Below are positions 1-18,582 of a DNA stretch of 36,109 bases, in pieces. The notes below the pieces were generated by a model. That model saw nothing but the letters and a program-made list of their open reading frames with translations. It had not been told where the DNA came from and made no database searches. Origin of the DNA: an uncultured Thermotogae bacterium. GTDB taxonomy: Bacteria > Bipolaricaulota > Bipolaricaulia > UBA7950 > UBA9294. The position numbers and the translations under genes are program-made. The stretch covers positions 1 through 36,109 of the forward strand of contig CAZWQN010000005.1 in assembly GCA_964635895.1 (NCBI GenBank). The letters run 5' to 3'. The stretch's first letter is position 1. Every line of letters starts with the position of its first letter.

Positions 1-6
1 GCGCGG

Positions 7-480
7 TCACCATCCCTGAACCTGGATCACGACTTCGCGCTCGCGCGGCCGGTCCAGCTCGACGAGGAACACGCTCTGCCACCGCCCGAGCGCAAGCCGT
101 CCGCCCATCACGGGGATCGTCTCGCTCGCGCTGAGCATCAGGTGCTGGCAGTGCGAGTGCCCGTTCGGACACTCGTCGTCGGTCATGTTCGCCGTACGAA
201 TGACGAAGTCGTTGTGGCGGTACTCCGCCTCGCGGGGCGCGCTGGTCTCCAGGAAGCGGGCCATGTCTCTGAGCAGGAGCGGCTCGTTCTCGTTGATCTT
301 GACGGCCGCCGTCGTGTGGCGCGAGAACACAGTCACCGTCCCGTCCTGGACCCCCGACGCCTCGACCGCTGCGGCGACCTCGTCCGTGATGTCGATGAAC
401 TCCGGCGCCGTCTGCGCAATCCGGTGGATCGCGACGCGGTGCATTCTCATCGCCACGCCGTCCTCGATCGTCGTGCGCAT
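7..480 (-). CDS. yjbQ: YjbQ/UPF0047 family protein (secondary thiamine-phosphate synthase family)
   Basis: Motifs FIDITDEV, HTTAAVKINENEP, NGHSH, LGRWQSVFLVELD. ATG at 480 follows a purine-rich SD-like GAGGGGTGAGGA; an alternative GTG at 498 overlaps the ispH stop. Confidence 0.85.
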   Translation of the reverse strand: MRTTIEDGVAMRMHRVAIHRIAQTAPEFIDITDEVAAAVEASGVQDGTVTVFSRHTTAAVKINENEPLLLRDMARFLETSAPREAEYRHNDFVIRTANMTDDECPNGHSHCQHLMLSASETIPVMGGRLALGRWQSVFLVELDRPREREVVIQVQGW

Positions 481-494
481 ATCCTCACCCCTCT

Positions 495-1364
495 TCACTT
501 CTCTGCCTCCAGACTCCCTCCGGCGCGGCCGCGCAGCCGCCGAACGACGTCCTCGATGACGTTATCCGGCGTCGACGCCCCCGCCGTCACCCCGAACCTC
601 TTCCCGGAAGCCAGCCACTCGTCCTCGATCTCGCCCGCGGACTCGATGTGGTGGGTCGGAACCCCCGTCGCCCGGCACGTCTCCGCGAGCTTGCGCGTGT
701 TCGCCGAGCTGCGGCTTCCCACGACGAGGAGCGCGTCGACGCGCACGGCCAACTCCGCGGCCGCCTGGTAGCGTCGCCCCGTCTCCGGACACGTCGTGTC
801 GACGATGCGCATCTCGGGCACTCGCCCGGTGTAGCGCTTGACCAGCTCCTGAACGAACTCGGCGAACATCGCCGGGCTCTTCGTCGTCTGCGAGATCACG
901 GCGATGCCCTTCTCTCCGATCGGAACCGCGATGTCGGGCGACTGCGTGGCGACGCCGCGTCCGCGCGTCCACGACAGGATCCCCCGCACCTCGGGATGCT
1001 CGGCCTCGCCGTACAGGACGACGCTGTATCCCTCCTCGACGAGCCGCGCCGCCGCATGCTGCGCCCGGCGGACGATCGGGCAGGTCGTGTCGACGAGCCG
1101 CAGGCCGCGGCGCTCGATCTCGGCGTACACCTCTTCGCCGGCGCCGTGGGCGGTGATCGCCACCGTCCCGCCCTCGGGGACCTCGTCGAGACTCGTCGCC
1201 ATCCGCGCGCCCTTGGCCGCCAGCGCGTCGACGACGTGAGCGTTGTGCACGATGGCGCCGAGGGTGTGGAGCGGGCCCTGCTCGGCAAGCTCGGTCTCGA
1301 TCCGCTGGACCGCGCGGCGCACGCCGCCGCAGAACCCGAGGACCTTGGCCTTGGCGATCGTCAT
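495..1364 (-). CDS. ispH: 4-hydroxy-3-methylbut-2-enyl diphosphate reductase (IspH/LytB)
   Basis: C-terminal part of ORF 495..3278. GFCGGVRRA, IVHN, AHG, DTTCP, SQTT, second DTTCP, SSANT, GVTAGASTP; three cluster Cys. The ATG overlaps the shc stop (ATGA). Confidence 0.93.
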   Translation of the reverse strand: MTIAKAKVLGFCGGVRRAVQRIETELAEQGPLHTLGAIVHNAHVVDALAAKGARMATSLDEVPEGGTVAITAHGAGEEVYAEIERRGLRLVDTTCPIVRRAQHAAARLVEEGYSVVLYGEAEHPEVRGILSWTRGRGVATQSPDIAVPIGEKGIAVISQTTKSPAMFAEFVQELVKRYTGRVPEMRIVDTTCPETGRRYQAAAELAVRVDALLVVGSRSSANTRKLAETCRATGVPTHHIESAGEIEDEWLASGKRFGVTAGASTPDNVIEDVVRRLRGRAGGSLEAEK

Positions 1365-3412
1365 CGCGCGCCGTCCTTGGCGACGCGGCCAGCTTGCGCC
1401 TCCGCAGCTTCGGCGGGCTTTCCAGCGACGGGCGGAACGCCTTCTGTCGCCCGTCGCCAGCGCCCAAGGGCCATCAGCGGGAAGACGTCGCGGTATAGGT
1501 GGTAGCGGATCATGAAGTCGGTCGGGAATCCCGTCCCCGTGAACGTCGCTTCGTCCCAGCCACCCTCCTCGTTCTGCGTCTCGGCGAGGTAGCGGATGCC
1601 GCGCTCCGTTGCCGGGTTGTCCACCTCTCCGGCGGCAACGAGCGCCAGCAGGGCCCACGCCGTCTGCGATGCCGTCGACGGACCGCGGCCTCTCCACACA
1701 GGGTCGTAGTACCCCTCGATCTTCTCTCCCCAGCCTCCGTCCGGATTCTGGCGCGCGAGCAGCCACTCGACCGCCCGGCGCACGTACGGCGCGCTCATGT
1801 CCTCGCCGACAGCGGCGAGCCCCGGGAGGACCGCGCCGGTCCCGTAGATCAGGTTCACGCCCCAGCGGCCGTACCACGCGCCGTCCGGCTCCTGCTCCCG
1901 GCGGAGGTAGTCGAGCGCACGCCGAATCACGGGATCGCTCGCCCGACGGCCCAGCCGGCCGAAGTACTCGACGATGTGGCCGGTGACGTCGACGGAGGGG
2001 GGGTCGATCATCTCGCCGAAGTCGGCGAACGGGATGTCGCGCGTCCACGTCTGGTCGTTGTTTCGATCGAACGCGCCCCAACCGCCGTTTGTGCTCTGCA
2101 TCCCGACGAGCCAGCGCGCGCCGCGGTCGAGGGCCGCCGCCTTTCGCGCCGGGGCGAGGTCGATCGCTGAGAGCGCGAGAAGCACCACGGCGCTGTCGTC
2201 GGTGTCGGGGTAGACGTCGTTCTGGAACTCGAACGCCCACCCGCCGGGCGGGGCATCGCAGCGAACCTGCCAGTCGCCATCGCCCAGGATCTGCTCGTCG
2301 AGGAGCCACTCGCCGGCCCGCACGAGGGCGGGATGGTCGCCGGACACCCCGGCGTCCTCGAGCGCCATCGCCGCGAGACCGGTGTCCCACACCGGCGACA
2401 GACACGACTGCAGATGGAAGGGGGCGTCGCCCCCGGCGGCCGCGTCCCCCACCGTGGCGCTCATCGCGAACCCCTGCGGGCCGTAGAAGCCGGCGAACCC
2501 CTTCGCGAGTGGGCCGTCCTCGTCGAGCCGGTAGCCGAGGAGTTGGAGCGCGATGAGCGAGTAGACCCACGGCGGCTGTATCCCGCCCCACGCGCCGTCG
2601 GCCTCTTGACGTTCGAGGATCCAGCGCTCCGCCTTGCGGATCGCCGTCTTGCGGAGCGGCTTGTACGGGAGCCTGGCGTAGGCGCGGAAGAGCCGGTCGG
2701 CCAGAAGGAAGAGGCGGGCTCGCGGCGTCCGCTTCGTCGCCGGCACGCGCAGGTCGGCGTTCGCGCGTCCGTTGACGTACAGCTCGTCGATCCTCGCTTC
2801 CGCGGGAAGCGGAACGACCGGCTTGCGATCCATGACGATCGCGAGCGGAACGATCGTCTGCCGCGCCCAGCAGCCGAACGAGTAGATGCTGATTGGGAAC
2901 CACGACGGCAGAAGGACGATCTCGGGCGGGAGCGCGGGGAGTCCCCGCCAGTCCCACTCGCCCGTCATCGCAAGCCAGATCTTGGTGAAGACGCGCGCCC
3001 TCTCGACGCCGCCCTTCGCGAGGATGAATGACCTCGCCTTCTCCATCTCCGGCCGATCGACCGAGATCCCCGCCATCTTGAGCGCGACGTAGGCCTCGAT
3101 CGTCGTCGACAGCTCCGCCGGGCCGTCGAACCAGTTGGCCCATGTCCCGTCGCCGCGCTGCTTCTCGAGGATGTACGCGGCGGCCCGCGACCGCTCGCCC
3201 TCGTCCGTGTTTCCGAGGATGTGGCGCAGGAAGACGTGCTCGGCGGTGATCGTCACGTTCGACTCGAGCTCGGCCCACCAGTAGCCGGCGTCGTTCTGGA
3301 TCGAGAGAAGGTGGTCGACGGCATTGCCGATGGCCCGATCAAGGTCGGCCACTTCGGCGACAGCGGGACCTGTCGCGATTGGCTCTTTCGTGGCTCGTAC
3401 CACGCTAGCCAT
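1361..3412 (-). CDS. shc: Squalene-hopene cyclase
   Basis: Catalytic YPDTDD (DxDD), SPVWDT, GGWAFEF, WGGIQPPW, QW repeats (QNDAGYW, QEPDGAW, QNPDGGW, QNEEGGW), FTGTGFP; SD GAGGGAG. Confidence 0.97.
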   Translation of the reverse strand: MASVVRATKEPIATGPAVAEVADLDRAIGNAVDHLLSIQNDAGYWWAELESNVTITAEHVFLRHILGNTDEGERSRAAAYILEKQRGDGTWANWFDGPAELSTTIEAYVALKMAGISVDRPEMEKARSFILAKGGVERARVFTKIWLAMTGEWDWRGLPALPPEIVLLPSWFPISIYSFGCWARQTIVPLAIVMDRKPVVPLPAEARIDELYVNGRANADLRVPATKRTPRARLFLLADRLFRAYARLPYKPLRKTAIRKAERWILERQEADGAWGGIQPPWVYSLIALQLLGYRLDEDGPLAKGFAGFYGPQGFAMSATVGDAAAGGDAPFHLQSCLSPVWDTGLAAMALEDAGVSGDHPALVRAGEWLLDEQILGDGDWQVRCDAPPGGWAFEFQNDVYPDTDDSAVVLLALSAIDLAPARKAAALDRGARWLVGMQSTNGGWGAFDRNNDQTWTRDIPFADFGEMIDPPSVDVTGHIVEYFGRLGRRASDPVIRRALDYLRREQEPDGAWYGRWGVNLIYGTGAVLPGLAAVGEDMSAPYVRRAVEWLLARQNPDGGWGEKIEGYYDPVWRGRGPSTASQTAWALLALVAAGEVDNPATERGIRYLAETQNEEGGWDEATFTGTGFPTDFMIRYHLYRDVFPLMALGRWRRATEGVPPVAGKPAEAAEAQAGRVAKDGAR

Positions 3413-4469
3413 GCCGTCTCCCTCGGTCCAGGAACCCCCGCACGGCGCCGACGATCTCGTCGGCCAGGCGATCCTCGGGGACCGCGGTCGCCGTCGGCTC
3501 GCCCCCCACGTACACGGTCCCCTGGCCGCGGCCTCCGACGAGGCCGACGTCGGCGTCCTTCACCTCGCCGAGCCCGTTCACCACGCATCCCATCAGCGCA
3601 ACCTTCACCGGGTCGACGACATCGTCGAGCGAGCGGCGGACCTCGCCGGCGATCCGCGCGAGGTCGATGCCCGTGCGGCCGCACGTCGGGCAGACGTGGA
3701 GATCGACGCCGCGGTGACGCAACCCGAGCGAGCGCAGGATCTCGTACGCCGCGCGGACCTCGTCGACCGGGTCGCCGGCGAGGGAGACCCGCAGGGTGTC
3801 GCCGAGTCCCTCGGCAAGCAGGATGCCCAGGCCGACGGCGGAGCGGATCGCCCCCTCCCACGCGGTTCCCGCCTCGGTGATCCCGATGTGAAGCGGGTAG
3901 TCGACCTCGGACGCGACAGCGCGGTACGCGTCGACGGTCATCCGCACGTCGGTCGCTTTGAGGGACAGGACGATGTTTGCGACACCGTGGCGTTCGAGGA
4001 GGCGCACCTCGTGAAGCGCGCTTTCCACCATTCCCGCGGCCGTCGGCCGCCCGTGCGCGTCCAAGTACTCCTTGGCGAGGGATCCCGAGTTCGCTCCGAC
4101 GCGGATCGGAATGCCGGCCCTGAGCGCCGCCTCGGCGACCTCGCCGATCCGCGCGGGGTCAGTGATGTTCCCCGGGTTCAGGCGCAGCTTGTCGACGCCG
4201 GCAGCGATCGCAGCCAGCGCAAGGCGGTAGTCGAAGTGGATGTCGGCGACGAGGGGGATCGAGATCGCCCGCCGGATCTCGGGGAGCGCCTCGGCCGCGG
4301 CGAAGTCGGGGACCGCGACCCGGACGATCTCGCACCCGGCTGCCTCGAGCCGTCCGATCTGGGCCACCGTCGCCGCGACGCCGACCGTGCTCGTGTTCGT
4401 CATCGATTGGACGACGATCGGAGCCCCGCCGCCGATAGGCACATCGCCCACAGTCACTCGCCGCGTCAT
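3405..4469 (-). CDS. ispG: (E)-4-hydroxy-3-methylbut-2-enyl diphosphate synthase (IspG/GcpE)
   Basis: IGGGAPIVVQSMTNT, PLVADIHFDY, RLNPGNI, LHIGITEAG, GDTLRVSL, CPTCGR, MGCVVNG. Start taken at the ATG overlapping the upstream stop (ATGA). Confidence 0.95.
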   Translation of the reverse strand: MTRRVTVGDVPIGGGAPIVVQSMTNTSTVGVAATVAQIGRLEAAGCEIVRVAVPDFAAAEALPEIRRAISIPLVADIHFDYRLALAAIAAGVDKLRLNPGNITDPARIGEVAEAALRAGIPIRVGANSGSLAKEYLDAHGRPTAAGMVESALHEVRLLERHGVANIVLSLKATDVRMTVDAYRAVASEVDYPLHIGITEAGTAWEGAIRSAVGLGILLAEGLGDTLRVSLAGDPVDEVRAAYEILRSLGLRHRGVDLHVCPTCGRTGIDLARIAGEVRRSLDDVVDPVKVALMGCVVNGLGEVKDADVGLVGGRGQGTVYVGGEPTATAVPEDRLADEIVGAVRGFLDRGRRHG

Positions 4470-5098
4470 TCGACCGCCTCCCCAAGAGCGTCCGCCACCG
4501 CGGCCACGGCGCGGCCGACCTGGCGTCCAGCAAGCGTCGAACCGCGGTAGAGGGCGAGGGTGGCCCCGAGGTGGCGCAGCATCGTCCACCAAAGGGGGCC
4601 GGGGCCCGAGAAAGGCATCTCCACCTCCGCAGAGTCGAGGACGACGCGACACGAGAGGAACGGCACGCCGCGGGCCGCCGCCCATCGAGCGAGCGGGCCG
4701 CTCTCGAGGTCTACGCTCTTCGCCCCCGTCTTCGCCAGCTCGCGTTTCTCGTCCGCGCCGGCGACGGCTCCGACGCAGGCGCACGGCCCGGTCCACACCG
4801 ACAACGCAAGCTCGTCGAGCGCCCCGCGGGCTCGGTCGACGAGGGCGCCGGAGATGGGGAGCGTCTCGCCACGGTGTAGGATCGTCCGCGCGAGAAAGAC
4901 GTCGCCGATCCGCATCCCGGGATCGAGGCCGCCGCAGAATCCGGTCGAGATGAGGAGCGCGGGTTCGATGCTCTTCCGACTCTGCGCCTCGAGGTCGGCG
5001 GCCGACGCCTCGCCCATCCGCGTCCGCACGACGCGAAGGCCGGGACGAGGCTCGACCCACTGGACCTCTCGCCGGAAAGAGCCCGCGACGACGATCAT
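4466..5098 (-). CDS. hpnG: Hopanoid-associated nucleoside phosphorylase (HpnG-like, PNP_UDP_1 fold)
   Basis: LISTGFCGGLDP, VDLESG, PFLSCRVVLD motifs of the MTA/SAH nucleosidase-phosphorylase fold. Lies between hpnH and ispG with ATGA overlaps on both sides. Confidence 0.75.
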   Translation of the reverse strand: MIVVAGSFRREVQWVEPRPGLRVVRTRMGEASAADLEAQSRKSIEPALLISTGFCGGLDPGMRIGDVFLARTILHRGETLPISGALVDRARGALDELALSVWTGPCACVGAVAGADEKRELAKTGAKSVDLESGPLARWAAARGVPFLSCRVVLDSAEVEMPFSGPGPLWWTMLRHLGATLALYRGSTLAGRQVGRAVAAVADALGEAVE

Positions 5099-6096
5099 CC
5101 CCACACCCCTCGCGCGACTCGGACGAGGGCCACCGGCTTGTGGAGCGCGTCGAGGATGCTCGCGCCCTCGAACGAGGAGTGCATCATGCAGTTCCCGCAA
5201 CGCGGGTCCACGCCCGGCCCGTAGTTCGCCCACACCTCCGGCGAAAACAGCTCCGCGACGTCGTCGGTGTGCCGATCGGCGAGCGCGTAGCACGGAAGCC
5301 GCCAGCCCTTGACGGTGTACGTCACCGTGGTCCACGCCGCGCAGTCGTACTCGCGTTCCCCGCGCAGGAAGTCAAGATAGAGCGGGTTGTTGTAGAACGG
5401 GAACCCCTTCGTCGGGTCGAGGACACGGCGGAACACGGCCACCGACTCCTGCCGCGCGAGGAAGAGGTCGCGGTCGGAGACATCGCCGTACGCGTACCCC
5501 GGCGAAACCATCAGCCCTTCGACGCCGAGCGCCTGGAGGCTCGCGAAGAGGGCGTGCAGGTCCTCGGCGTCCGACCCGTGGAAAAGCGTCGTGTTCGTGC
5601 AAACGCGGTGCCCGCGGGCCACGGCCTCGCGGATTCCGGCGATCGCCGTCGCGTAGGTGCCGGGTCGCCCCGTCACGCGATCGTGGACCGCTTCGGTGCC
5701 GTCGAGATGGACGACGAAGGCCAGTTGGCGTGAGGGGGGGAACAGGTCGAGCTTCTCCTCAAGCAGGAGCCCGTTCGTGCACAGGTACAGGTAGCGCCCG
5801 TCGTCCTTCAGCGCGCGAACGATCTCGCCGATTCCCCAGTGCAGGAGCGGCTCGCCTCCCGAGATGGACACGATCGGCGCATCCGACGCGCGGACCGCGG
5901 CGAGACAGGCGTCGACGTCGAGGCGACGATCGACCACGTCGCGGTACTCGCGGACCCGCCCGCAGCCCGCGCAGGCGAGGTTGCACGCCTCGAGAGGCTC
6001 GAGCATCGTGACGAACGGGAACCGCTTCCGCCGCAGCAGCTTGTTGCCGGCAATGTGCCGCGCCACCGCCGCGTCCAGCCGGAACGGACGACTCAT
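5095..6096 (-). CDS. hpnH: Adenosyl-hopene transferase HpnH (radical SAM)
   Basis: MLEPLEACNLACAGCG (CxxxCxxC), SISGGEPLLH, LCTNG, VHLDG, SPGYAY, C-terminal PCY and CGNCMMH; located in the shc cluster. Confidence 0.9.
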   Translation of the reverse strand: MSRPFRLDAAVARHIAGNKLLRRKRFPFVTMLEPLEACNLACAGCGRVREYRDVVDRRLDVDACLAAVRASDAPIVSISGGEPLLHWGIGEIVRALKDDGRYLYLCTNGLLLEEKLDLFPPSRQLAFVVHLDGTEAVHDRVTGRPGTYATAIAGIREAVARGHRVCTNTTLFHGSDAEDLHALFASLQALGVEGLMVSPGYAYGDVSDRDLFLARQESVAVFRRVLDPTKGFPFYNNPLYLDFLRGEREYDCAAWTTVTYTVKGWRLPCYALADRHTDDVAELFSPEVWANYGPGVDPRCGNCMMHSSFEGASILDALHKPVALVRVARGVWG

Positions 6097-7079
6097 CGCT
6101 CCCTCCCTGCGAGGTAGCCGAACAGCGCCCGCGCCTCGCTCTTTCCCTGCGGCGAGAACGGCAGGGCTTCGAGCCCCGCCTCGGCCTCGGCCAGGTACTC
6201 CCGCACCTTCTGCGCGCCTTCATCGCGCGCGCCCAGTCGCTCCATCGTCTCGATCACCCAGCGCGCGTCGGACTCCGACACCGGCTCGCTGGCGTAGATG
6301 GCCTCCAAGCGCGCCCGATCTCCGGCCGTGGCGTGCGAGAACGCGGCCGCCACGGGGAACGACTTCTTCCGTCGGCCGACGTCCGAGCCGCGCGGCTTGC
6401 CGAGGGCGTCGCCGTTCCCCCAGACGCCGAGAAGGTCGTCCTGGATCTGGAACGCGCGCCCGACGGAGCGCCCCAGGATTCTGAGTTGTCCGCGAACCTT
6501 CGCGTCGGCGCCCGCGACGATCCCGCCGAGCTCGAACGCGCAACGCAGGAGCGTCCCCGTCTTCCGATCAACCATGTCGAGGTACTCGTCGACCGTCGCC
6601 GCGCGGCGCTCGAAGGCAAGATCAAGCGACTGTCCCTCGATCATCTCCGCCGTCGCGGCCGCCAAAGCCGCCGCGGCCTCGCTCCCGGCTCGGAGAACCA
6701 CGGAAGTCGAGATCGCGTGCATGAGGTCGCCGGCGTTGATCGCCTCGGCGATCCCGTACCTCGCCCAGACGGTCGGTCGCCCGCGGCGCGTCCGGTCCTG
6801 GTCCTGGATGTCATCGTGGATGAGCGAGAAGTTGTGGACGAGCTCGAGGCCGACGGCCGCGGGGAGCGCCTTCGCCATCGGCGCCCCCAGCTCCTCGGCG
6901 ACGAACAGGACGAGACTCGGGCGAAGGAGCTTTCCCATCCCGTCGATCGCGACGCCGTCTTCGTCCTCCAGGCCCACGTGGAGCCGGAGCGCCCGCAGGA
7001 GCGGCGTGCCGCCGCGCAGAGCGTCGCCCATCGCGACGCGGAGTTCGTCTCGGTGTGCACGGAGGATCCGCGGCGTCAT
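6093..7079 (-). CDS. Trans-polyprenyl (FPP/GGPP) diphosphate synthase
   Basis: GKLLRP, HNFSLIHDDIQD (FARM), RRGRPT, GQSLD, KTG, FQIQDD (SARM), KKS. Alternative GTG start at 7088. Confidence 0.92.
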   Translation of the reverse strand: MTPRILRAHRDELRVAMGDALRGGTPLLRALRLHVGLEDEDGVAIDGMGKLLRPSLVLFVAEELGAPMAKALPAAVGLELVHNFSLIHDDIQDQDRTRRGRPTVWARYGIAEAINAGDLMHAISTSVVLRAGSEAAAALAAATAEMIEGQSLDLAFERRAATVDEYLDMVDRKTGTLLRCAFELGGIVAGADAKVRGQLRILGRSVGRAFQIQDDLLGVWGNGDALGKPRGSDVGRRKKSFPVAAAFSHATAGDRARLEAIYASEPVSESDARWVIETMERLGARDEGAQKVREYLAEAEAGLEALPFSPQGKSEARALFGYLAGRER

Positions 7080-7080
7080 C

Positions 7081-7701
7081 TCACCCACGCCCCGTGCCCG
7101 GAGCCCCGACGGCGAGTCCCAGCCGCTCGGCCGCGGCCACGAGGTCGGCGGCCGACCGTGCCCCCAACTTTCGCATCAGCCGCGCGCGGTGGTTGCGCAC
7201 CGTGTGGATGCTGCGGTGGAGCAGCAGGGCGATCTCGCCGTTCTTCTTCCCTTCGACCACGAGCTGGAGCACCTCCCGCTCCCTCGACGTCAACGCCTCG
7301 TCCGGCGGTTCGCCGCCGTCCACAAGGCAAGTCTCACCGGCCGCCACGCGGCGGACCACGTCGAGCAGGCGCTCGACGGCGGCGTCCTTGACGACGTAGC
7401 CGCGGGCCCCTGCCCGTCGCGCTCGAGCCACGAACGGAGCGTCGTCGTGCATCGTCAGGATGACGACGCCTGTTTGCGGCGAGAGACGGGCAATCCGCCG
7501 CGTCGCCTCCATGCCGTCGAGGAGCGGCATGGAGACGTCCACGAGCGCCACGTCGGGACGGTGGGCGCGCACTTCGCGGAGCAGGCTCCGCCCGTCTCCC
7601 GCCTCGGCGACGATCTCCACCCCGCTCGAGCCGAGCAGAGCCCGGATCCCCGACCGGACCAACGCGTGATCATCCGCAAGGACCACCCGAATGGACCCCA
7701 T
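7081..7701 (-). CDS. NarL/LuxR family response regulator (RR2)
   Basis: VVLADDH, phospho-acceptor in LVDVSMP, LTMH, YVVKD; LuxR HTH LTSREREVLQLVVEGKKNGEIA...HRARLMRKL. Confidence 0.92.
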   Translation of the reverse strand: MGSIRVVLADDHALVRSGIRALLGSSGVEIVAEAGDGRSLLREVRAHRPDVALVDVSMPLLDGMEATRRIARLSPQTGVVILTMHDDAPFVARARRAGARGYVVKDAAVERLLDVVRRVAAGETCLVDGGEPPDEALTSREREVLQLVVEGKKNGEIALLLHRSIHTVRNHRARLMRKLGARSAADLVAAAERLGLAVGAPGTGRG

Positions 7702-7707
7702 GCTCCG

Positions 7708-7713
7708 ATTGTA
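7708..7713 (-). promoter_or_regulatory. Putative -10 element (TACAAT) of a leaderless RR2 transcript
   Basis: Minus strand reads TACAAT-cggagc-ATG; no SD-like purine tract lies between the element and the start codon. Confidence 0.5.
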
Positions 7714-7716
7714 TGC

Positions 7717-7741
7717 CCCCATGTCGCGCCGCGACACGGGG
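7717..7741 (-). other. Inverted repeat between the two response regulators (hairpin or operator)
   Basis: Minus strand CCCCGTGTCGC-GGC-GCGACATGGGG: an 11-bp stem with one G:U pair and no U-tract. Confidence 0.5.
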
Positions 7742-7763
7742 AAACCGTACTCATTGGACTTCC

Positions 7764-8339
7764 CTAGAACGCGATCCGCCGTCCGTAGGCGACAAGGGCG
7801 GCCCGCGTGTGGATGTCCAGCTTCTGCATCAGGCGCTCGCAGTGCCCATCGACCGTCTTCCTCTGGATCCCGAGCTCGCGGGCGACCTCGTCGTTCGACC
7901 GCCCGGCCGCGACGAGCGCCAGGATCTCGCGCTCCCGTAGGGAAAGGCGATCCAAAGACGGGAGCGTCTCGCCGGCGGCCACCCGCCGGATCGCGTCGAC
8001 GAGCGCCTCTGCCGACGCGGACTTGGCGACGAGGCCACACGCCCCGCGCGCGATCGCCTCGGCCGCGTACTCCGGCTCGGAGTGCATCGACAGCATCAGG
8101 ACCCGCGTCTCGGGACTCACGCGACGGATCTCCGCGACGAGGTCGAGCCCGTCGGCGTCGGGGAGCGCGATGTCGAGGAGAAGCACGTCGGGACGGCACG
8201 CCGCCGCAAGCGTGAGCGTCCCCGCCCCGTCGCCGCACGAGCCGACGACGGTCAGGTCCTCTTCAAGGCCGAGGAGCCGCGCCAGTCCGTCGCGGACGAG
8301 CGCGTGGTCATCGACGATCGCGATCCGCGTCGTCCCCAC
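7764..8339 (-). CDS. NarL/LuxR family response regulator (RR1)
   Basis: IAIVDDH, LLDIALP, LSMH, LVAKS; HTH LSLREREILALVAAGRSNDEVA...LMQKLDI. GTG start with a GGAGG SD, overlapping the kinase 3' end. Confidence 0.92.
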   Translation of the reverse strand: MGTTRIAIVDDHALVRDGLARLLGLEEDLTVVGSCGDGAGTLTLAAACRPDVLLLDIALPDADGLDLVAEIRRVSPETRVLMLSMHSEPEYAAEAIARGACGLVAKSASAEALVDAIRRVAAGETLPSLDRLSLREREILALVAAGRSNDEVARELGIQRKTVDGHCERLMQKLDIHTRAALVAYGRRIAF

Positions 8340-9555
8340 AGGGAACCTCCACGGTGACGATCGTCCCGCGCTCGGGGGTCGACGCGAGCGAGACCGCTCC
8401 ACCGGCGATCGTCACCCGCTCCTCGATCCCGCGCAGGCCCAGACCCCGCGGCCCGTCGGGCGAGATCCCGATCCCGTCGTCCTCGATCGCGAGCCGCACC
8501 CACGCCCCCTCCGCCGAGATCCGAATCGTCGCCCGACGTGCCTTGGCGTGCCGTACGACGTTCTCCAAGGCTTCGCGCGCGACGTGATAGAGAAGCCCCT
8601 CCGCCTCTCGGTCGAGCCGGCCGTCCAAGTCCGACTCGACGCGAACCGCGAGGCCGCTCTCCTCTCCGACGCTCGCGGCCAGCCGGTCGAGCGACGGCAC
8701 GAGTCCGAGGTCGTCGAGCAGTGGCGGCCGGATGGAGTAGGCGAGCGTTCGCGTCTGCCGGATCGCCTCGTCGACGATCCCCGTGACCTCGCGGTAGTCG
8801 TCCTCGCCGAGCCTCGCCTTCGCCGGCGCGAGGTGAAGCTTGATCGCCGCGAGCGACTGGATGAGCCCGTCGTGGAGCCCGCGCGCGATCCTCCGCCGCT
8901 CCTCGTCTTGGGCACCGAGCAGCCGCTTCGACATCCGCGCCAGCTCCAGCTCTCGCTCCGCCAGCATCCGGTTCTTCCGCGCGTCGATCGCCGCGAACGT
9001 CCGCACCGTGAACGCGACGACGGAGTAGAGGGCCACCGTTCCCGCGAGGATCGTCGCGACGTTGTACGACAGACTCTGGTACGAGTCGCCGGCGACCGCG
9101 AACAGAGAGCGGTGTGGGAGAATTCCCACCGACTCGAGCAGGACGAGTGTCGCGTAGCACGCGACCACCCAGCCGGTGACCACCGCCCCGTACACGCGGG
9201 GAAGGAAGAAGTTCGCGTACAGCACCGTGAACAGGTAGAAGATGTTGCCGATCCAGGTGCTTCCGCCCATGAAGTGAACGAGGATCGTGATGAGGACGGC
9301 CTCGGCGAGGAAGAACCCGGTGTGCGCCCACTGGAGGGCCCGCTCCCTCTTCATCCGCTCGATCAGGGCCTTGAACGGAAACGTCAGGAGGAACCAGACG
9401 ATGGGCGAATAGAAGAGCGGGTTCCGATAGCTCAGTCGGCTCGTGAACAGGACGACGAGGGCGACGGCGGAGAAGACGCCGAGCGTCAGCCGACGCACGA
9501 GGATCGTTCGGATGACTCCTGCTTTGCGTTCGGCGAATCCTGCCGCGCCGTCCAT
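8308..9555 (-). CDS. Membrane sensor histidine kinase, HisKA_3 (NarX/UhpB/DesK-type)
   Basis: About six hydrophobic N-terminal segments, H-box ERRRIARGLHD, N-box EALENVVRHA, G1 IEDDGIG, G2 GLGLRGIEER. Start position uncertain. Confidence 0.9.
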   Translation of the reverse strand: MDGAAGFAERKAGVIRTILVRRLTLGVFSAVALVVLFTSRLSYRNPLFYSPIVWFLLTFPFKALIERMKRERALQWAHTGFFLAEAVLITILVHFMGGSTWIGNIFYLFTVLYANFFLPRVYGAVVTGWVVACYATLVLLESVGILPHRSLFAVAGDSYQSLSYNVATILAGTVALYSVVAFTVRTFAAIDARKNRMLAERELELARMSKRLLGAQDEERRRIARGLHDGLIQSLAAIKLHLAPAKARLGEDDYREVTGIVDEAIRQTRTLAYSIRPPLLDDLGLVPSLDRLAASVGEESGLAVRVESDLDGRLDREAEGLLYHVAREALENVVRHAKARRATIRISAEGAWVRLAIEDDGIGISPDGPRGLGLRGIEERVTIAGGAVSLASTPERGTIVTVEVPCGDDADRDRR

Positions 9556-9569
9556 GGGAGCTGACGGAT

Positions 9570-9848
9570 CTACGTCAGCGTCGGCGGAAGGGCGATCTTC
9601 CCGAAGTTCTTCTCGTAGCGCTGGAGGTTCTCGCCGATCGCCTGGTACAGCCGCTTCATGTGCACGGGGTTCAAGGTCACGCGCGACGTGAGGATTGCCT
9701 GCCCCTCCTGGGGCGACGCCGGCTGCGGGTCCACGAACAGGAAGTCGACGACGAACTCCTCCTGGCGATGCGAGATCAGGGCGAGGTTGGAGTAGTGCCC
9801 CCGCCGCGTCTCGTTGTCCGCCGTGATCTGCATCTTGCGCTCGGGCAT
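9570..9848 (-). CDS. DUF3467-like small protein
   Basis: GHYSNLALISH..EEFVVDF...SRVTLNPVHMKRL..A..ENL..YEK.FG.I pattern; strong SD GGAGGTGA. Confidence 0.75.
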   Translation of the reverse strand: MPERKMQITADNETRRGHYSNLALISHRQEEFVVDFLFVDPQPASPQEGQAILTSRVTLNPVHMKRLYQAIGENLQRYEKNFGKIALPPTLT

Positions 9849-9995
9849 GAACGCTCACCTCCGCCGATCCCGGATAGTAGCGACTTATACGGATGGGTAC
9901 AAGGAAGCGCTCGCGGGGTCTGCGTCCTGAGACAGCCGCCGGACAAGATCGCGGGGAAGCGGCGGCATCCCGCGAGATTTGGATGTGGGGAGAAT

Positions 9996-10120
9996 GGCGC
10001 AACCTGGCGCGACTAGGTGGCCGGACAGCTTCGCAGCCTAGGGTAGCGGCGCAACCTGGCACGGTTAGGTGGCCAGGGTAGCGGCGCAACCTCGCAGGGA
10101 TCTACGTTGCGAGGTAGCGG
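9996..10120. repeat. Short degenerate tandem repeats with internal dyad symmetry
   Basis: GGCGCAACCTGGC-N6-AGGTGGCC at 9996-10022 and 10048-10074; AGGGTAGCGGCGCAACCT exact at 10040-10057 and 10075-10092; ACCTCGCA...TGCGAGGT stem at 10089-10115. Confidence 0.75.
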
Positions 10121-11316
10121 TCGAAGAAGCGGCGAACGGTCTCGCCGTGGCGGCCGGCAAGGAGGATGTGGTGGTTGCCGAGCGGCGCGGTAAGCAGCTC
10201 GTCGACCGGCTCGTCGACCACGACGCGGACCTGCGTGCGGCAGAGGTTGTCGCGGAACGGAGCCTCTTCAACGCGGCCCTCGCGAAGGAAGAGCTGGTCG
10301 AGCCTCTCTCCCCCGAGTCGGAACAGCGTGCAGTCTCCGGCGGGGATCATTCCGGCGAGCCCAACGCCGATCCCGGACTCGAAGTGACTCCGAATCGCGT
10401 AGCTCGTCGTCATCGAGAGCGGGCAGGTGCAGTGGGCGAGCCCGACGGCGGGGGTCTTCACGTCGACGTCGGCGACGTTGCCCATGAACGCCGTCTGCCC
10501 CGACAGGAGGAACGCGAGGTAGAGGGTGACGAGCGCCTGAAGGTCGCCCTCGCACCCCGCCGGAACGCGTTCGTCGTTCAGCCGGGACACCGCGTAGCAG
10601 CCGGTCGTCTTCATCCGCTTCACGAGGTCGAAGCAGCGGACGGTGCACGCCGACAGCCGGTGCTCGTCGACGAGGCTGCGGAGCCCGGCGTAGACCTGGA
10701 CCGCGTCGCGGATCTCAGCCGGTTTCGGCTCGGCTACCGTCTCCGCGCGCTTTGTCAGGCTCGCGACGTCCTTCCGCGACGCCTCCGCAGCGCGCGCCGT
10801 CTCGAGCAGAGCATCCATCGGAATCTGCACAAGTTCGATCGACAGGCGTCCCTTGAGAAACGCGCGGTCGACGTCGCTCGCGACGAGCCAGTCGGAGGGC
10901 TCGCCGATCAGGCCGATCCGGGAGAAGCGCAACGCCTCCCAGGCGTTGGCGAGAACAAGCTCCTGCTTCAGCCCGGCCACGACCTCCGACGGAGAGCCAA
11001 ACAGGATCCGCCCCTCGCCGCCGTCCTGGCGGATGCGCGCGAGGACCTCGAGCGAGGCGGGGAGCGAGTTGTCCCCCGGGTGGGCAATCAGGAGCGTGGG
11101 AGACGGGAGCTGGGCGACGGTCTTCAGCACGTCGCGCTCCACGCCCCCCGTGAGCACGAGGATCGCCGTCAGCTTGTCGGCCGCCGGGTGGGCGATCTCC
11201 TCGATGCAAAGGCCGTCGCTCGTGCGAAGCCCCGCGAGCACGCGGGTCCGCAACGAGTCAATGTGGCCCTTGTCGTGAAGGCTGCTCGCCCGCACGATGA
11301 CCCCGATCTTGTCCAT
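10102..11316 (-). CDS. L-fucose/L-arabinose isomerase-like protein
   Basis: VLTGGVE, NSLPASLE, TVRCFD, AGCEGD, AHCTCP, RSHFESG, CRTQ and GNHH match the pattern of uncharacterised FucI-like proteins; substrate unknown. Confidence 0.65.
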   Translation of the reverse strand: MDKIGVIVRASSLHDKGHIDSLRTRVLAGLRTSDGLCIEEIAHPAADKLTAILVLTGGVERDVLKTVAQLPSPTLLIAHPGDNSLPASLEVLARIRQDGGEGRILFGSPSEVVAGLKQELVLANAWEALRFSRIGLIGEPSDWLVASDVDRAFLKGRLSIELVQIPMDALLETARAAEASRKDVASLTKRAETVAEPKPAEIRDAVQVYAGLRSLVDEHRLSACTVRCFDLVKRMKTTGCYAVSRLNDERVPAGCEGDLQALVTLYLAFLLSGQTAFMGNVADVDVKTPAVGLAHCTCPLSMTTSYAIRSHFESGIGVGLAGMIPAGDCTLFRLGGERLDQLFLREGRVEEAPFRDNLCRTQVRVVVDEPVDELLTAPLGNHHILLAGRHGETVRRFFDRYLAT

Positions 11317-11549
11317 GGGGCCATCGTATCGCCCGCTCCCAACCCTCCCGATCCATTCGCGGACCCGCGCTCTAGACACGGATCACCCGCGCGCCGGACC
11401 AAGCGGCGGAGGGATCCGCGCCGCTCTCCCCTCACGAACGGACGCCGGCCGTCGCTCGTCGCACAGGCGCGCCGACGCTTGATACGACGAAGCCGCCCTG
11501 GACCCCTTCGTCCGGGTCGGCACCACGCGCGTCGGCGACGGGAGGCCCG

Positions 11550-12629
11550 ATGAGCTTTCTCGAGACCCTCTTCTATGGGAACCCCGCCTGGCGGTGGCTC
11601 GCCGCCGCCGCCGTCATCCTGTTCGCGTGGGTCTTCCTTCAGGTTGCCACTCGCACCGTCATCCGCTGCCTGCGGCGCGCCGCCGAGCGCACCGAGGGCC
11701 GGCTCGATGACCTCTTCGTCGAGCTTCTGCACAAGACTCGGTTCTTCTTCGTCTTCGTCATCTCCGCCTACGCGGGGTCGCGGCTGCTGACCCTACCCGA
11801 GGCGGCGAAGGAGGTTCTCTGGGTCGGGTTCGTGATCGCGATGCTCGCCCAGGCCGGGTACTGGGGCAACGGCCTCGTCAACTTCTGGCTCTCCCGCACG
11901 GTGCATCGACGATTGGGCGGAGACGCCGCGGCAGCGACCTCGCTCGCCGCCCTCGGCTTCCTGGCCAAGCTCGCGATCTGGGCCGTCGTGCTGCTCGTCG
12001 TTCTCGACAACATGGGCGTCAGCATCACGACGCTCGTGGCCGGACTCGGAATCACGGGAATCGCGGTGGCGCTCGGCGTCCAGAGCGTCTTCAAGGATGT
12101 GTTCGCGTCGTTGTCGATCATCGTCGACAAGCCGTTCGTGATCGGCGACTTCATCGCCGTCGGAGATCTGGGCGGCACTGTGGAACGAATCGGTCTGAAG
12201 ACCACGAGGGTCCGCAGCCTGTCCGGCGAGGAGATCGTGTTCTCGAACGGAGACCTGCTCGACAGCCGCGTGCGGAACTACAAGTCGATGACCGAGCGCC
12301 GCATCGCGTTCACGTTCGACGTCGCAGCCGACACGCCGATCGAGCGGCTGCGTGAGATTCCCGCGCTCGTTCGAACAGAAATCGAGAAGGTGCGCGGCGT
12401 GCGCTTCGACCGTTGCCACCTCCGGTCGTTCGCCAGCTCTACCCTCTCGTTCGAGGTCGTGTACTTCGTTCTGTCCGGCGTCTACCTCGAATCCATGGAT
12501 GCCCGGCACGCCGTCAACCTCGGCATCCTCCAGGCCTTCGAGACCCGCGGCGTCCGCCTCGCGTACCCGACGCGGACGGTCTACCTCCGCTCGGCGCCGG
12601 GCTCAGAAGACGAACCACCCAACCAGTAG
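11550..12629 (+). CDS. mscS: Small-conductance mechanosensitive channel (MscS family)
   Basis: AGLGITGIAVALG TM3, KPFVIGDFI, GTVERIGLKTTRVRS..GE...FSN, RVRN; SD GGGAGG. Confidence 0.92.
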   Translation: MSFLETLFYGNPAWRWLAAAAVILFAWVFLQVATRTVIRCLRRAAERTEGRLDDLFVELLHKTRFFFVFVISAYAGSRLLTLPEAAKEVLWVGFVIAMLAQAGYWGNGLVNFWLSRTVHRRLGGDAAAATSLAALGFLAKLAIWAVVLLVVLDNMGVSITTLVAGLGITGIAVALGVQSVFKDVFASLSIIVDKPFVIGDFIAVGDLGGTVERIGLKTTRVRSLSGEEIVFSNGDLLDSRVRNYKSMTERRIAFTFDVAADTPIERLREIPALVRTEIEKVRGVRFDRCHLRSFASSTLSFEVVYFVLSGVYLESMDARHAVNLGILQAFETRGVRLAYPTRTVYLRSAPGSEDEPPNQ

Positions 12630-13823
12630 CGCCGCAGCCGCTCCGATCAGGACGGGCAGAGCCAGCCGCCGCACGAGCGCACCGATCGACGTCTTAAAGT
12701 AGGCGACGGACACGGAGATGCACGGGTGCACCGGGGTCACGACGTAGCCGAGGAAGGCGGCGTAGTACGCAAGCGCGAATCCGGGAAGCGTCATCGGTCC
12801 GTGCGCCGAAGCGTAGATCGGAAGGACCACCGCCAGGGACGCCTCGATCCGCCCGGTGATGAAGCCGAGGGCGAATCCGACGCCGAGGCACAAGGCGAGC
12901 GGAGGGAGCCGCATCGCGGCCAGCCGCTCGGGGACCCCCGACGACGCGAACACGTTCAGGAAGGCGAACATGGCCACGATGATCGCGGCGTACGTCCACG
13001 GACGAGCGCGGAGGACGATCCGCACGAGACGCTTCGGCCCGACCCGGCCGATCACCAAGGACAGCGCAAGACTCAGGACGACGCCCGCTGCGGTCGCGAT
13101 CTCGCGGACGGGGAGCGTCGCCGTACTGGCGAGGGCGAGGTCGAGGGCCGGGGCGACAAGGAGAATCCCAAGCGGCACGAGGAGGTCGCGCAGGGAGAAC
13201 GACCCCCTCGCGTCCTGACTTGCGGAATCGGTCTCCTCGTCGGCCCTCTTCGGGTGCGCGCAGCGCAGGAGGAAGACCCCGCCGAGTAGAACGGACAGAG
13301 CGAACGCAGGCGCGAGGTACGGAATCGTCGCGTACACGTCCAGCCCCGCCACCTTCGCCGAGGCGATCAGCGAGGAACCGAGCGGGTACACAAGCAAGAG
13401 CACATGGCGGAACCAGACGTTGGCCGCCGCCTTGACGTCCGGAGCCACGTGCCCCGCTCCCCGCTCCACGAGGGGCGCCGAGAGAAGCGCGCCCCCGGGC
13501 ATCGGCAGCATGCCGAGGAGTCCCGGAGCGAGCGCGAGGAACGGGCGCACTCCCACGCGGAGGTTGCCGACCAAGCGCGCCATCTGCCCGGACGCCTCCA
13601 TGACGCCGCCGAGGACGGGGATGAGGAACACCACGAGAGCGAGCACCAGGACGGAGGGGTCCGACACCGTCCGCCAGAGCGCGGCGCCGATCTCGGCGGG
13701 GGAGAGGGCGAACGCGCCGAGGGCGAGGGCGCCGACGGCCAGACCGAGGGCGAGGCCGAAGCGCGATAGGACGACGAGAAGCACAACGGCCACGGCGAAT
13801 CCGACCCAGAGCAGCAACGCCAC
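12603..13823 (-). CDS. DUF401-like polytopic membrane protein (probable ion-transporter superfamily)
   Basis: Highly hydrophobic, with GMLPMPGGALLSAP, NVWFRH, YPL and TPVHPC motifs. Start is GTG 13823 or TTG 13817. Confidence 0.65.
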   Translation of the reverse strand: MALLLWVGFAVAVVLLVVLSRFGLALGLAVGALALGAFALSPAEIGAALWRTVSDPSVLVLALVVFLIPVLGGVMEASGQMARLVGNLRVGVRPFLALAPGLLGMLPMPGGALLSAPLVERGAGHVAPDVKAAANVWFRHVLLLVYPLGSSLIASAKVAGLDVYATIPYLAPAFALSVLLGGVFLLRCAHPKRADEETDSASQDARGSFSLRDLLVPLGILLVAPALDLALASTATLPVREIATAAGVVLSLALSLVIGRVGPKRLVRIVLRARPWTYAAIIVAMFAFLNVFASSGVPERLAAMRLPPLALCLGVGFALGFITGRIEASLAVVLPIYASAHGPMTLPGFALAYYAAFLGYVVTPVHPCISVSVAYFKTSIGALVRRLALPVLIGAAAALLVGWFVF

Positions 13824-13924
13824 CTCCCGACTTGCACACGAACGCGGAAGGGTACGACATGAGCCGCCTTGATCCCAGGCCGGCCTGTTGGACCCGCCGC
13901 CTCCGTCCGGCACAATGCACCTCG

Positions 13925-14320
13925 GTGATCGCCGTGAGTGAGCTTCGAGACGTGGTTCAAGACGTGGCGGACGCGGGGCACCTACCGTGCGCGATCGTGT
14001 TCTCCCTTGCCGGCCGGTTGGGCGTCTCCCCGCACGCGGTTCGCGAGGCTGCTGATGCCGCCGGAGTTCGGGTGTCGCTCTGCCAGCTCGGTCTGTTCGG
14101 GTACGACGCGTTCGGCGAGCGTCGCGCCACTCGCGCGCTGCCCCTCGTCCCTGAGGGACTCCGCGCCGCCCTTGCCGCGGCGGCCGTCGACGGCCACCTT
14201 CCGTGCGCCGCGGCGTGGCGCCTTGCCGACGAAGGCGGCGTGCCTCGCTTCTTGTTCGGCTCTATCGCCGAGACGATCGGCGTCCGGATCTCGCGCTGCC
14301 AGCTCGGCTGTTTCGAGTAG
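13925..14320 (+). CDS. Small uncharacterised protein with two 41-aa Cys-containing repeats
   Basis: Two ungapped repeats GHLPCA...GVRxSxCQLGxF. Start is GTG 13925 or 13934. Confidence 0.75.
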   Translation: MIAVSELRDVVQDVADAGHLPCAIVFSLAGRLGVSPHAVREAADAAGVRVSLCQLGLFGYDAFGERRATRALPLVPEGLRAALAAAAVDGHLPCAAAWRLADEGGVPRFLFGSIAETIGVRISRCQLGCFE

Positions 14321-14382
14321 ACGAGCGCGGGATGGGCAGAGCCGCTGTCCCACGCGCGGCTCTTCGTCATGTCGCGGCGTCG

Positions 14383-14841: not shown

Positions 14842-14886
14842 GGAGCCCCTCCTCTGTCACAGGAGCCGCGTCCATTCTCCAGGCCG

Positions 14887-18529: not shown

Positions 18530-18535
18530 CGACAA

Positions 18536-18564: not shown

Positions 18565-18582
18565 ACAGTTCGTTAAGCTTCT

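Follow-up and report, generated by a model that had tools for sequence, protein, structure and literature searches.

Introduction

How bacteria set the level of their hopanoids is largely unexplained, and the locus described here raises the question of whether a two-component system can be dedicated to this pathway and, if so, which cue it reads. The DNA analyzed, hereafter called the window, is a stretch of 36,109 nt (contig CAZWQN010000005.1 of GenBank assembly GCA_964635895.1; G+C content about 70%) from a metagenome-assembled genome of the Bipolaricaulota, in which a sensor histidine kinase (HK) and two response regulators (RR1 and RR2) directly precede a string of genes for hopanoid synthesis. 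The source assembly, G000 below, consists of 146 contigs totalling 1.45 Mb, with a completeness of 86%; the other genomes, their contigs and their loci are designated by G, C and L numbers.

In the literature we found, as regulators of hopanoid genes, a stress sigma factor that targets a methylase gene and a broad envelope-stress system. EcfG controls hpnP in Rhodopseudomonas palustris (Kulkarni et al. 2013, as cited in the available text of PMC4337730), and the BesRS regulon of Burkholderia thailandensis includes a putative hopanoid operon with BesR-box-like repeats, as described in the accessible part of PMC9426598. A 2025 survey of hopanoid gene neighbourhoods contains, in its available text, no Bipolaricaulota or Acetothermia and brings in two-component systems only for Kdp (PMC12324291). 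For J31, the first cultured strain of Bipolaricaulota, the legend of Fig. S12 of a preprint, in the portion available, lists a "terpenoid" cluster with the products YjbQ, IspH, SHC, a hypothetical protein, adenosyl-hopene transferase, polyprenyl synthetase, a hypothetical protein, a response regulator and a further hypothetical protein (10.1101/2025.11.21.689855). In that same portion we found no comment on regulation of the cluster, and our literature search found no paper describing this two-component system.

We conclude that the system very probably regulates the hopanoid operon through a 21-nt site. This is well supported because the co-occurrence of the genes, their colinearity, the rearranged loci and the behaviour of the motif all bear on it. 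We infer from the same comparisons that the motif is the site of the regulator, that regulation is activation, which regulator acts and what kind of cue is read. The complete chain, starting from a cue that reflects the state of the bilayer, is a tentative proposal to which we give slightly less than even confidence.

Gene organization of the locus

Eleven genes make up the locus, all of them on the minus strand as the earlier note on this DNA had described: DUF3467, HK, RR1, RR2, pps, hpnH, hpnG, ispG, shc, ispH and yjbQ. The small DUF3467 protein of 92 aa (9570-9848; PF11950, 72 bits, E 4.4e-20) would be the first product of a unit transcribed from a predicted promoter, P1. It is followed by the HK of 415 aa (8308-9555), with HisKA_3 and HATPase_c domains in Pfam, and by two NarL/GerE-type regulators, RR1 (7764-8339; Response_reg 92.1 bits, GerE 58.2 bits) and RR2 (7081-7701; 98.5 and 59.5 bits), the latter being the first gene of a second putative unit, P2. 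The biosynthetic genes are a polyprenyl diphosphate synthase gene, pps (6093-7079; PF00348, 203 bits), hpnH for the radical SAM adenosyl-hopene transferase (5095-6096; TIGR03470, 376.5 bits against a cut-off of 225, with Radical_SAM and DUF3463 domains), an hpnG-like nucleosidase/phosphorylase gene (4466-5098; PNP_UDP_1 63 bits, and TIGR03468 HpnG 92 bits, which is below its cut-off of 187), ispG (GcpE) of the methylerythritol phosphate (MEP) pathway (3405-4469; PF04551, 457 bits), shc for squalene-hopene cyclase (SHC) (1361-3412; SQHop_cyclase_N 432 bits and _C 493 bits), ispH (LytB), again of the MEP pathway (495-1364; PF02401, 271 bits), and a yjbQ-family gene, the last in the window (7-498; TIGR00149, 119.6 bits).

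The genes are closely packed. The junctions are +14 nt from DUF3467 to HK, -32 from HK to RR1, +62 from RR1 to RR2 and +1 from RR2 to pps, where the RR2 stop codon lies one nucleotide before the pps start (TGA G ATG); downstream, the overlaps are 4 nt at pps-hpnH, hpnH-hpnG, hpnG-ispG, shc-ispH and ispH-yjbQ and 8 nt at ispG-shc. Both the single-nucleotide junction and the overlapping biosynthetic genes had been proposed in that note and are confirmed. Across colinear loci of relatives the RR2-pps junction ranges from -44 to +31 nt and is mostly -4, and RR1 starts before the kinase stop, with an overlap that is 29-32 nt in most loci, 4-32 nt across all of them and 32 nt in the window. DUF3467 lies 7-37 nt upstream of the kinase in the loci of family f1; it was not found in the loci of families f4, f6 and f7 and is a neighbour of the kinase only in the family of the window.

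The cluster continues past the start of the window, as contig C113 ends in 55 nt that are identical to window positions 1-55. C113 carries two SQS_PSY genes (hpnC/hpnD-like), above the Pfam cut-off, and an hpnE-like gene, all on the same strand as yjbQ and starting about 640 nt downstream of it; in relatives an hpnE-like gene is found about 1.8 kb past yjbQ. With this overlap, the locus spans the last two MEP steps and the formation of farnesyl diphosphate, squalene and hopene up to adenosylhopane processing. The profiles thus predict a hopanoid biosynthesis cluster, with the N- as well as the C-terminal domain of SHC, an HpnH equivalog above its cut-off and a squalene route through the two SQS_PSY genes. 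No second copy of ispG, ispH or pps was detected in G000 by tblastn and, since the sole detected copies lie inside the operon, its output is the supply of isoprenoids as well as hopanoids. In the 640-nt spacer before hpnC, where the TRF program gave no repeat array, inspection by eye showed about five imperfect repeats, each of about 70 nt, which probably broke the assembly. The DNA upstream of hpnC on C113 showed, by eye, no copy of the 21-nt motif described below.

Co-occurrence and linkage across the phylum

The sensor domain of the kinase (E<=1e-5), hpnH (E<=1e-40) and SHC (E<=1e-30) were searched in 184 species genomes of Bipolaricaulota. They were found in 118, 128 and 115 genomes, respectively, the sensor domain in essentially one copy each. 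Sensor and hpnH occur together in 113 genomes, the sensor alone in 5, hpnH alone in 15 and neither in 51; for sensor and SHC the corresponding numbers are 108, 10, 7 and 59. Five whole families (35 genomes) have neither sensor, nor hpnH, nor SHC. The contigs of all five fetched genomes with hopanoid genes and no sensor end inside or just before the regulatory genes: that of G074 starts in the C-terminal half of the kinase, those of G067 and G135 end in RR2 and RR1, and those of G165 and G072 at hpnH. Among genomes with hpnH only, G018, G066, G080 and G091 have this gene at contig edges, as judged from coordinates alone, and G016, G139, G175 and G177 contain divergent hpnH-like genes (45-61% identity) with no pps or shc alongside. 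The latter four, of which G175 was judged by coordinates and identity alone, were excluded from the hopanoid-operon count. The loci of G139, G016 and G177 (L130, L131 and L132) hold lone divergent hpnH-like radical SAM genes, two of them adjoining an hpnG-like nucleosidase gene; G016 and G177 are without SHC, and the sole SHC match of G139 is an 85%-identical fragment on another contig. These genes may belong to a different pathway.

Among the 113 genomes with both sensor and hpnH, 81 are colinear, in the sense that the two lie on one strand with hpnH 3.1-4.0 kb downstream of the sensor. In 4 others the two genes share a contig in a different arrangement, in 1 they are split, and the remaining 27 give no information, as a contig end intervenes. 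The possibility, raised beforehand, that the kinase and regulator orthologues occur mostly unlinked to shc is therefore contradicted. The order HK-RR(-RR)-pps was present in 20 of 20 fetched loci and in the 17 database loci that reach far enough (22 in total, 5 of which end too early; some contigs are shared with the fetched set). As a control, none of 58 HisKA_3 kinase loci from other phyla, related by the catalytic core only, had a pps, hpnH or shc match within 10 kb. The 404-aa gene upstream of the locus and DUF3467 are conserved only within the family of the window and the upstream flanks differ between families, so the link between kinase and operon outlasts the surrounding gene order. 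Taken as sequence evidence, these data support the view that the kinase/regulator set is a dedicated and conserved companion of the hopanoid operon in Bipolaricaulota.

Rearranged loci and loss of the system

The rearranged loci are a stronger argument than the counts, kin genomes not being independent trials. In genus g39 (G081 and G083), the RR2-RR1-HK block is inverted and divergent from pps-hpnH-hpnG-shc-ispH-yjbQ, the two being 486 nt or 1.7 kb apart. A 4.4-kb group of opposite-strand efflux genes is found in G060 between the kinase and RR-RR2-pps (L114, G060:C7, 6779-11148); it codes for a MacB/FtsX permease, an ABC ATPase, an HlyD-like adaptor and an OEP outer-membrane factor and is divergent from the regulator-hopanoid unit. 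G074 has a 1.5-kb insert between RR1 and RR2-pps. G073 (95% complete, 30 contigs) carries HK-RR1 on one contig and RR2-pps-hpnH-hpnG-ispG-shc-ispH-yjbQ on another, and in G125 (family f11) the operon is followed, 3.9 kb downstream, by HK-RR. Family f7 has a single RR2-type regulator, shc on another contig and an extra gene for an HpnA-like NAD-dependent epimerase/dehydratase between hpnG and ispG (for example L029, 7737-8738, minus strand; likewise L031 and L045).

Two genomes, G140 and G141 (the latter 91% complete, in 20 contigs), have lost the system together with part of the pathway. Their locus reads upstream gene, DUF3467, pps, hpnH, hpnG, ispG, ispH and hpnE-like gene, with P1 kept and the essential isoprenoid genes retained; the kinase, RR1, RR2, shc and yjbQ are lost, there is no room for hpnC/D, and no SHC was found anywhere in these genomes.

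Promoters and a candidate operator

Upstream of DUF3467 lies a sigma70-like candidate promoter, P1 (9874-9902, minus strand), with TTGTAC as -35 (9897-9902), a 17-nt spacer and TACTAT as -10 (9874-9879), followed in the window by the Shine-Dalgarno sequence GGAGGTG. The pattern TTGnnn-16/17-TAYYAT ending 24-32 nt before the DUF3467 start codon was present in 19 of 21 loci, compared with 6 of 4200 shuffles, which is consistent with a promoter function.

The gap between RR1 and RR2 is the only other regular gap in the gene string (41-180 nt, mostly 48-67). It contains an operator-like 21-nt motif, AATGAGTACGGTTTCCCCGTG (7735-7755, minus strand), whose family consensus is about ATTGATACGnTTnCCCCAT, and a -10-like box, TACAAT (7708-7713, minus strand), which follows the motif at a distance of 21 nt and precedes the RR2 start codon by 6 nt. 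The motif, a gap-free and non-conserved 21-nt spacer and a TAnnnT box were found in all 13 aligned sequences (the window and 12 relatives), TA and the final T of the box being invariant. In loci inspected by eye the start codon comes 6-12 nt past the box. No conserved TTG-type -35 was seen in the aligned sequences of this region. With TAnnnT as the -10 element, the motif would occupy about -54 to -34, the position of a class II activator; P2 may accordingly be activator-dependent and give a leaderless or short-leader transcript. In the window, the DNA from the motif to the -10 box (7714-7740, minus strand) also forms a near-perfect 12-nt inverted repeat, CCCCGTGTCGCG / CGCGACATGGGG, which is not conserved in relatives.

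A degenerate 14-nt core pattern of the motif has one mismatch-free match in the whole of G000, in the RR1-RR2 gap. The exact core occurs once in G001, in the same gap, once in G081, upstream of pps, and twice in G083; it has no match in G003 and G043, whose own sites differ by one base, and a separate regular expression for the motif gave no match across G000. Of the 12 core matches with one mismatch in G000, the three closest look by eye to be coding and were discounted as chance. The 13 aligned sites also served to build a weight matrix, with which both strands of entire loci of 13-21 kb were scanned. The equivalent site ranked first within its locus in 18 of 23 held-out loci with the system (for L027 the motif distance was read from the sequence) and in all three later loci that contain DNA upstream of RR2. 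In families f4 and f7, two copies of TAGTAC about 21 nt apart stand at the position of the motif.

The motif was also followed through the rearrangements. It is placed 42 nt upstream of pps in the inverted loci of G081 and G083, 42 nt upstream of RR2 and after the insert in G074, and about 45 nt upstream of the orphaned RR2 in G073, where the separate HK-RR1 locus has no such site. In G140 and G141 the motif is absent and pps starts 42 nt after DUF3467. As far as these alignments indicate, the motif goes with the head of the biosynthetic unit and not with the tail of RR1. A promoter inside RR2 that drives the operon independently had been named as evidence against regulatory linkage. An internal promoter is indeed predicted, but it is located upstream of RR2 and not within it, so that RR2 itself belongs to the regulated unit. 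A promoter/terminator scanner run over positions 1-11500 returned no promoter-like site (0.4 expected) and two plus-strand terminator-like sites (3.0 expected); as it misses P1 as well as P2, its result is neutral on both.

The two response regulators

RR1 and RR2 both keep the acidic pocket DD, the phospho-acceptor D, the S/T and the K, and belong by their domains to the NarL/FixJ (GerE) type. None of the NCBIfam equivalogs reached its cut-off, the best being MctR with 160 and 140 bits against 300. In a FastTree phylogeny, midpoint-rooted without outgroup and read without its support values, RR1 and RR2 form separate clades. The RR1 clade is confined to families f1 and f6. Of the lone regulators, those in f7 group inside the RR2 clade, and the ones in f4 and f11 sit on branches next to it. 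This placement suggests that the RR2-type regulator was probably the original partner of the kinase, and RR1 looks like a later duplicate sitting in the unit that appears constitutive. Nine receiver domains and eight matches to HATPase_c were found in G000; some of the latter are expected to be non-kinase GHKL ATPases, and kinases number about five. Two of only nine receivers genome-wide are thus located at the hopanoid locus.

The sensor kinase and its membrane domain

The kinase consists of a six-transmembrane (6TM) sensor (residues 1-190, 8986-9555), a HisKA_3 domain (residues 219-279, 8719-8901; PF07730, 44.4 bits against a cut-off of 24) and a HATPase_c domain (residues 320-405, 8341-8598; PF02518, 55.4 bits against 26.4), which places it among HisKA_3-type kinases. 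Residues H228, D229, E328, N332, D359, G361, G363, G371 and G373 are invariant in 17 orthologues. No Pfam match was obtained in residues 1-218, and no PAS, GAF or extracytoplasmic domain was found. Six hydrophobic and helical segments were recognized in the N-terminus from hydropathy peaks and from an AlphaFold model of the whole kinase, built on the 17 orthologues (pLDDT 78.9), in which the helices comprise residues 2-38, 46-67, 71-97, 102-117, 120-143 and 162-249, with loops of at most 18 residues. The earlier note had described an input of about six hydrophobic segments with short loops and no obvious extracytoplasmic, PAS or GAF domain, a description that hydropathy, model and Pfam all uphold. 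Lys/Arg clusters on alternate loops, by reading of the sequence, fit an N-in, C-in topology. The sixth transmembrane helix is predicted by the model to run unbroken into the phospho-accepting helix of the dimerization and histidine phosphotransfer (DHp) domain.

The best solved matches of the whole-kinase model are cytoplasmic structures of DesK, and VraS (E about 1e-9, 23-26% identity), which is expected for any HisKA_3 core. Modelled alone (pLDDT 80.7, pTM 0.75), the membrane domain had no match in the PDB by Foldseek, the best E value being 1.9, and no solved DesK transmembrane domain featured among the matches. Among 1.84 billion representative proteins, a profile of residues 1-205 retrieved 736 matches at E<=1e-3, 167 at <=1e-10 and 20 at <=1e-30. 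Ten of these relatives, from ranks 9-28, were scanned for domains and had as outputs PAS alone, HisKA with or without PAS, hybrid kinases, adenylate/guanylate cyclase, SpoIIE phosphatase or nothing recognisable. Weak matches to PF25323, the PilS-like transmembrane domain, were given by 2 of the 10 scanned relatives and 6 of the 17 orthologue sensor domains (best E 1.1e-5), the orthologue matches staying below the gathering score of 27 bits; the sensor domain of the window itself had no match at E<=10. In the ESM Atlas, its nearest clusters are PilS-like transmembrane domain proteins (score 0.95). In view of these sub-threshold matches and this likeness, we read the sensor domain as a distant relative of PilS and not as a member of the family.

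Invariant polar residues of the 17 orthologues include E85, in the middle of the third transmembrane helix, H78, E141 and H148. In an alignment of 142 remote relatives, of which 137-139 cover each position, G97 is conserved in 136, W101 in 125, Y107 in 117, E141 in 109 (with Asp in a further 12), H148 in 96 and E85 in 78 (with Asp in a further 30). Because the polar residues are conserved family-wide, nothing in them is specific to hopanoids. The input is, as judged from its sequence relatives, a generic and ancient intramembrane sensor module, distantly PilS-like and not of the DesK type.

Upstream neighbourhood

Directly upstream of DUF3467, and conserved there throughout the family of the window, is the gene for a 404-aa protein (10102-11316, minus strand) that matches nothing in Pfam and, in NCBIfam, has only a weak resemblance, below threshold, to sulfoquinovose isomerase. 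Between this gene and P1, three direct repeats of about 25 nt are located at 9988-10012, 10040-10064 and 10075-10099. Two of the three copies match a 20-nt pattern (<=3 mismatches) that nothing else in G000 matches. The repeats were considered as regulator sites and set aside, as similar ones were found only in L128 and they are not part of the conserved architecture. Further upstream, window positions 11550-21991 contain osmotic-stress genes, namely an MscS-type channel (11550-12629, plus strand), an OpuAC betaine-binding protein (14990-15916, minus strand), an ABC ATPase with a CBS domain (16719-17855, minus strand) and TrkH (20477-21991, plus strand). An open reading frame at 18583-19578 (minus strand), with HTH_32/HTH_23 and an rve_3 integrase core, is an apparent insertion-sequence transposase.

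Discussion

Control of a membrane-lipid pathway by a kinase whose sensor is confined to the membrane is a known kind of circuit; the locus would fit it, and the comparative support is unusually clean. The two-component system is in our reading specific to the Bipolaricaulota lineage and devoted to transcription of this operon. In the mechanism that we propose, a constitutive-looking P1 would make DUF3467, the kinase and RR1. As the kinase has no domain outside the membrane, the cue would have to be read within the bilayer, by the six-helix PilS-like sensor whose last helix is predicted to be continuous with the phospho-accepting helix. The kinase would then phosphorylate the NarL-type regulators, and a phosphorylated regulator would bind the 21-nt site and boost P2, raising RR2, in positive autoregulation, together with pps, hpnH, hpnG, ispG, shc, ispH and yjbQ, and perhaps hpnCDE. 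The flow of MEP intermediates into farnesyl diphosphate would thereby rise in step with the hopanoid enzymes. Since the only detected ispG, ispH and pps genes are in the operon, read-through from P1 would have to give a basal level on top of which the system modulates, so that control is probably a modulation and not an on/off switch. The likeliest cue would be the physical state of the bilayer, be it packing, fluidity, thickness or tension, and the circuit would then be a homeoviscous loop with a sterol-like lipid as output.

This proposal recalls the DesK-DesR system of Bacillus subtilis, a membrane-thickness/fluidity sensor acting on the des desaturase. Shared with it are a HisKA_3 kinase with an input made of membrane helices only, a NarL-type partner, a membrane-lipid-modifying target and a transmembrane helix continuous with the DHp helix. 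The present system differs in that it has two regulators, heads its target operon and has a hopanoid/isoprenoid output with no desaturase. Its sensor has six helices, compared with five for DesK in the available text of PMC8301901, and shows PilS-like profile and language-model likeness, with nothing DesK-named among the relatives found in these two comparisons. A DesK-type thermosensor was therefore rejected on the helix number, the absence of a desaturase downstream and the PilS-like transmembrane domain, the NarL-type regulator being the part that agrees. Of the Des-like homeoviscous circuit with hopanoid output that had been suggested for this DNA, dedicated, operon-linked control is supported by linkage and motif; a DesK-like sensor of membrane thickness or fluidity is not, in view of the six helices and the widespread PilS-like family.

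Kinases of the LiaS/VraS type have two transmembrane helices joined by a very short loop and usually a LiaF-like partner. This type was likewise rejected, given the six helices and an LiaS NCBIfam model that scores 81 bits, with a cut-off of 450, and matches the catalytic core only. The kinase core of PilS is of the HisKA type, in contrast to the HisKA_3 core and GerE-type regulators found here. What PilS of Pseudomonas aeruginosa shares with the present kinase is a six-transmembrane sensor with short loops, and the weak PF25323 likeness of the orthologues. According to the available part of PMC6058289, the PilS domain can read an intramembrane ligand, and its partner PilR binds with sigma-54 and activates pilA.

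Among regulators of hopanoid genes, BesRS is a precedent in being a two-component system with a hopanoid operon among its targets. The BesRS genes are not known to lie in a hopanoid cluster. BesRS differs further by its RstAB/EnvZ-OmpR-like type and its broad envelope-stress regulon, as presented in the accessible text of PMC9426598. EcfG likewise links a stress pathway to transcription of a hopanoid gene, but it is a sigma factor and not a two-component system, its target is the methylase and not the core pathway, and it is not operon-linked.

Several observations weigh against the homeoviscous circuit proposed above. The sensor belongs to a generic family, with PAS, HisKA, cyclase and SpoIIE outputs and the same polar residues, so that nothing links its cue to membrane order or hopanoids; sensing of an ion, a proton or a ligand agrees with the invariant mid-helix E85 and the His residues no less well than sensing of thickness. 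The weight matrix failed in 5 of the 23 held-out loci (L028, L031, L032, L045 and L124), and training and test loci are related; the 21-nt motif could be a promoter element for another factor. In G083 the second exact motif (L135, G083:C119, 2-1249, minus strand) precedes a GT4 glycosyltransferase gene, with 21-23 nt to a TAGGTT box, so the regulon may exceed this operon; an orthologue of this glycosyltransferase was not found in G000 at E 1e-10. Kinship of the genomes means that the counts are not independent and overstate the support. Finally, a reading in terms of hopanoids alone leaves unexplained why hpnH and hpnG are kept in G140 and G141, where shc is missing.

Four alternatives were weighed, taken here in descending order of probability. 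The circuit may be the one proposed and its 6TM domain may bind a hopanoid, or squalene/diploptene, as product or precursor feedback, which would be a functional counterpart, in a deep-branching bacterial phylum, of sterol sensing in eukaryotes. The sensor lies wholly within the membrane by hydropathy and model, with invariant polar residues inside its helices, its nearest named family is the PilS-like 6TM group, which senses pilin as an intramembrane ligand (PMC6058289, available part), and it tracks the genomes that have the pathway, being lost with shc and hpnC/D in G140 and G141. We nevertheless regard a pathway lipid as an unlikely cue: the same polar residues are kept in remote relatives with other outputs, many of them unlikely hopanoid makers, and no solved fold in the PDB matches the domain by Foldseek. 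If it were true, the reading of membrane lipids by this widespread 6TM module would extend to many other signalling proteins.

The system could instead be a general envelope-stress regulator with a wider regulon, for which the adjacent hopanoid operon is one target among others. The glycosyltransferase site of G083 keeps the same TAnnnT spacing, efflux genes are inserted within the G060 locus, and BesRS of B. thailandensis has a putative hopanoid operon in its regulon (PMC9426598, accessible text). A wide regulon is improbable, however, when the core pattern occurs once in G000 and the exact core once each in G001 and G081, when the three closest one-mismatch matches of G000 are apparently in coding sequence, and when the system is lost as the pathway is lost.

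A third alternative keeps the circuit and makes its cue ionic or osmotic (protons, cations or turgor-related tension), read through buried Glu and His residues, with hopanoids as a barrier response to pH or osmotic stress. Invariance of E85, H78, E141 and H148 agrees with this, as do the MscS channel, OpuA-type betaine transporter and TrkH that neighbour the locus in the window. Osmo-responsive domains correlate with SHC in a genome survey (PMC12324291, available text), and DesK is described as pH-responsive in the part available of PMC7465017. Against the argument from neighbours, the gene order upstream of the kinase changes between families, and we hold an ionic or osmotic cue to be rather improbable.

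That there is no regulatory link at all, the genes being neighbours by descent and co-transcription with targets elsewhere, is very improbable: all the data are comparative and from a single phylum, and HK-RR1 of G073 stands on a separate contig, but proximity survives inversion, two insertions and relocation while the upstream flanks differ, the motif moves to pps on inversion and vanishes on deletion of the system, and the co-occurrence of the sensor with hpnH and SHC points the same way.

The homeoviscous circuit thus remains the reading that we propose, and it would be a compact and dedicated one, made up of a single sensor confined to the membrane, one or two regulators, a single 21-nt site and a single operon. 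In this operon lies the entire route that starts with the last MEP steps and leads to extended hopanoids. The locus is kept across the phylum, and its natural variants, inverted, split or deleted, behave as the model predicts. The locus offers a testable model for how hopanoid levels are set. The circuit could be rebuilt in a heterologous host to ask which membrane cue drives the synthesis of a sterol-like lipid, and the published map of J31, with the same gene order, makes tests in a native host possible. The locus would also give a first functional context to the large, uncharacterised family of PilS-like 6TM input domains.

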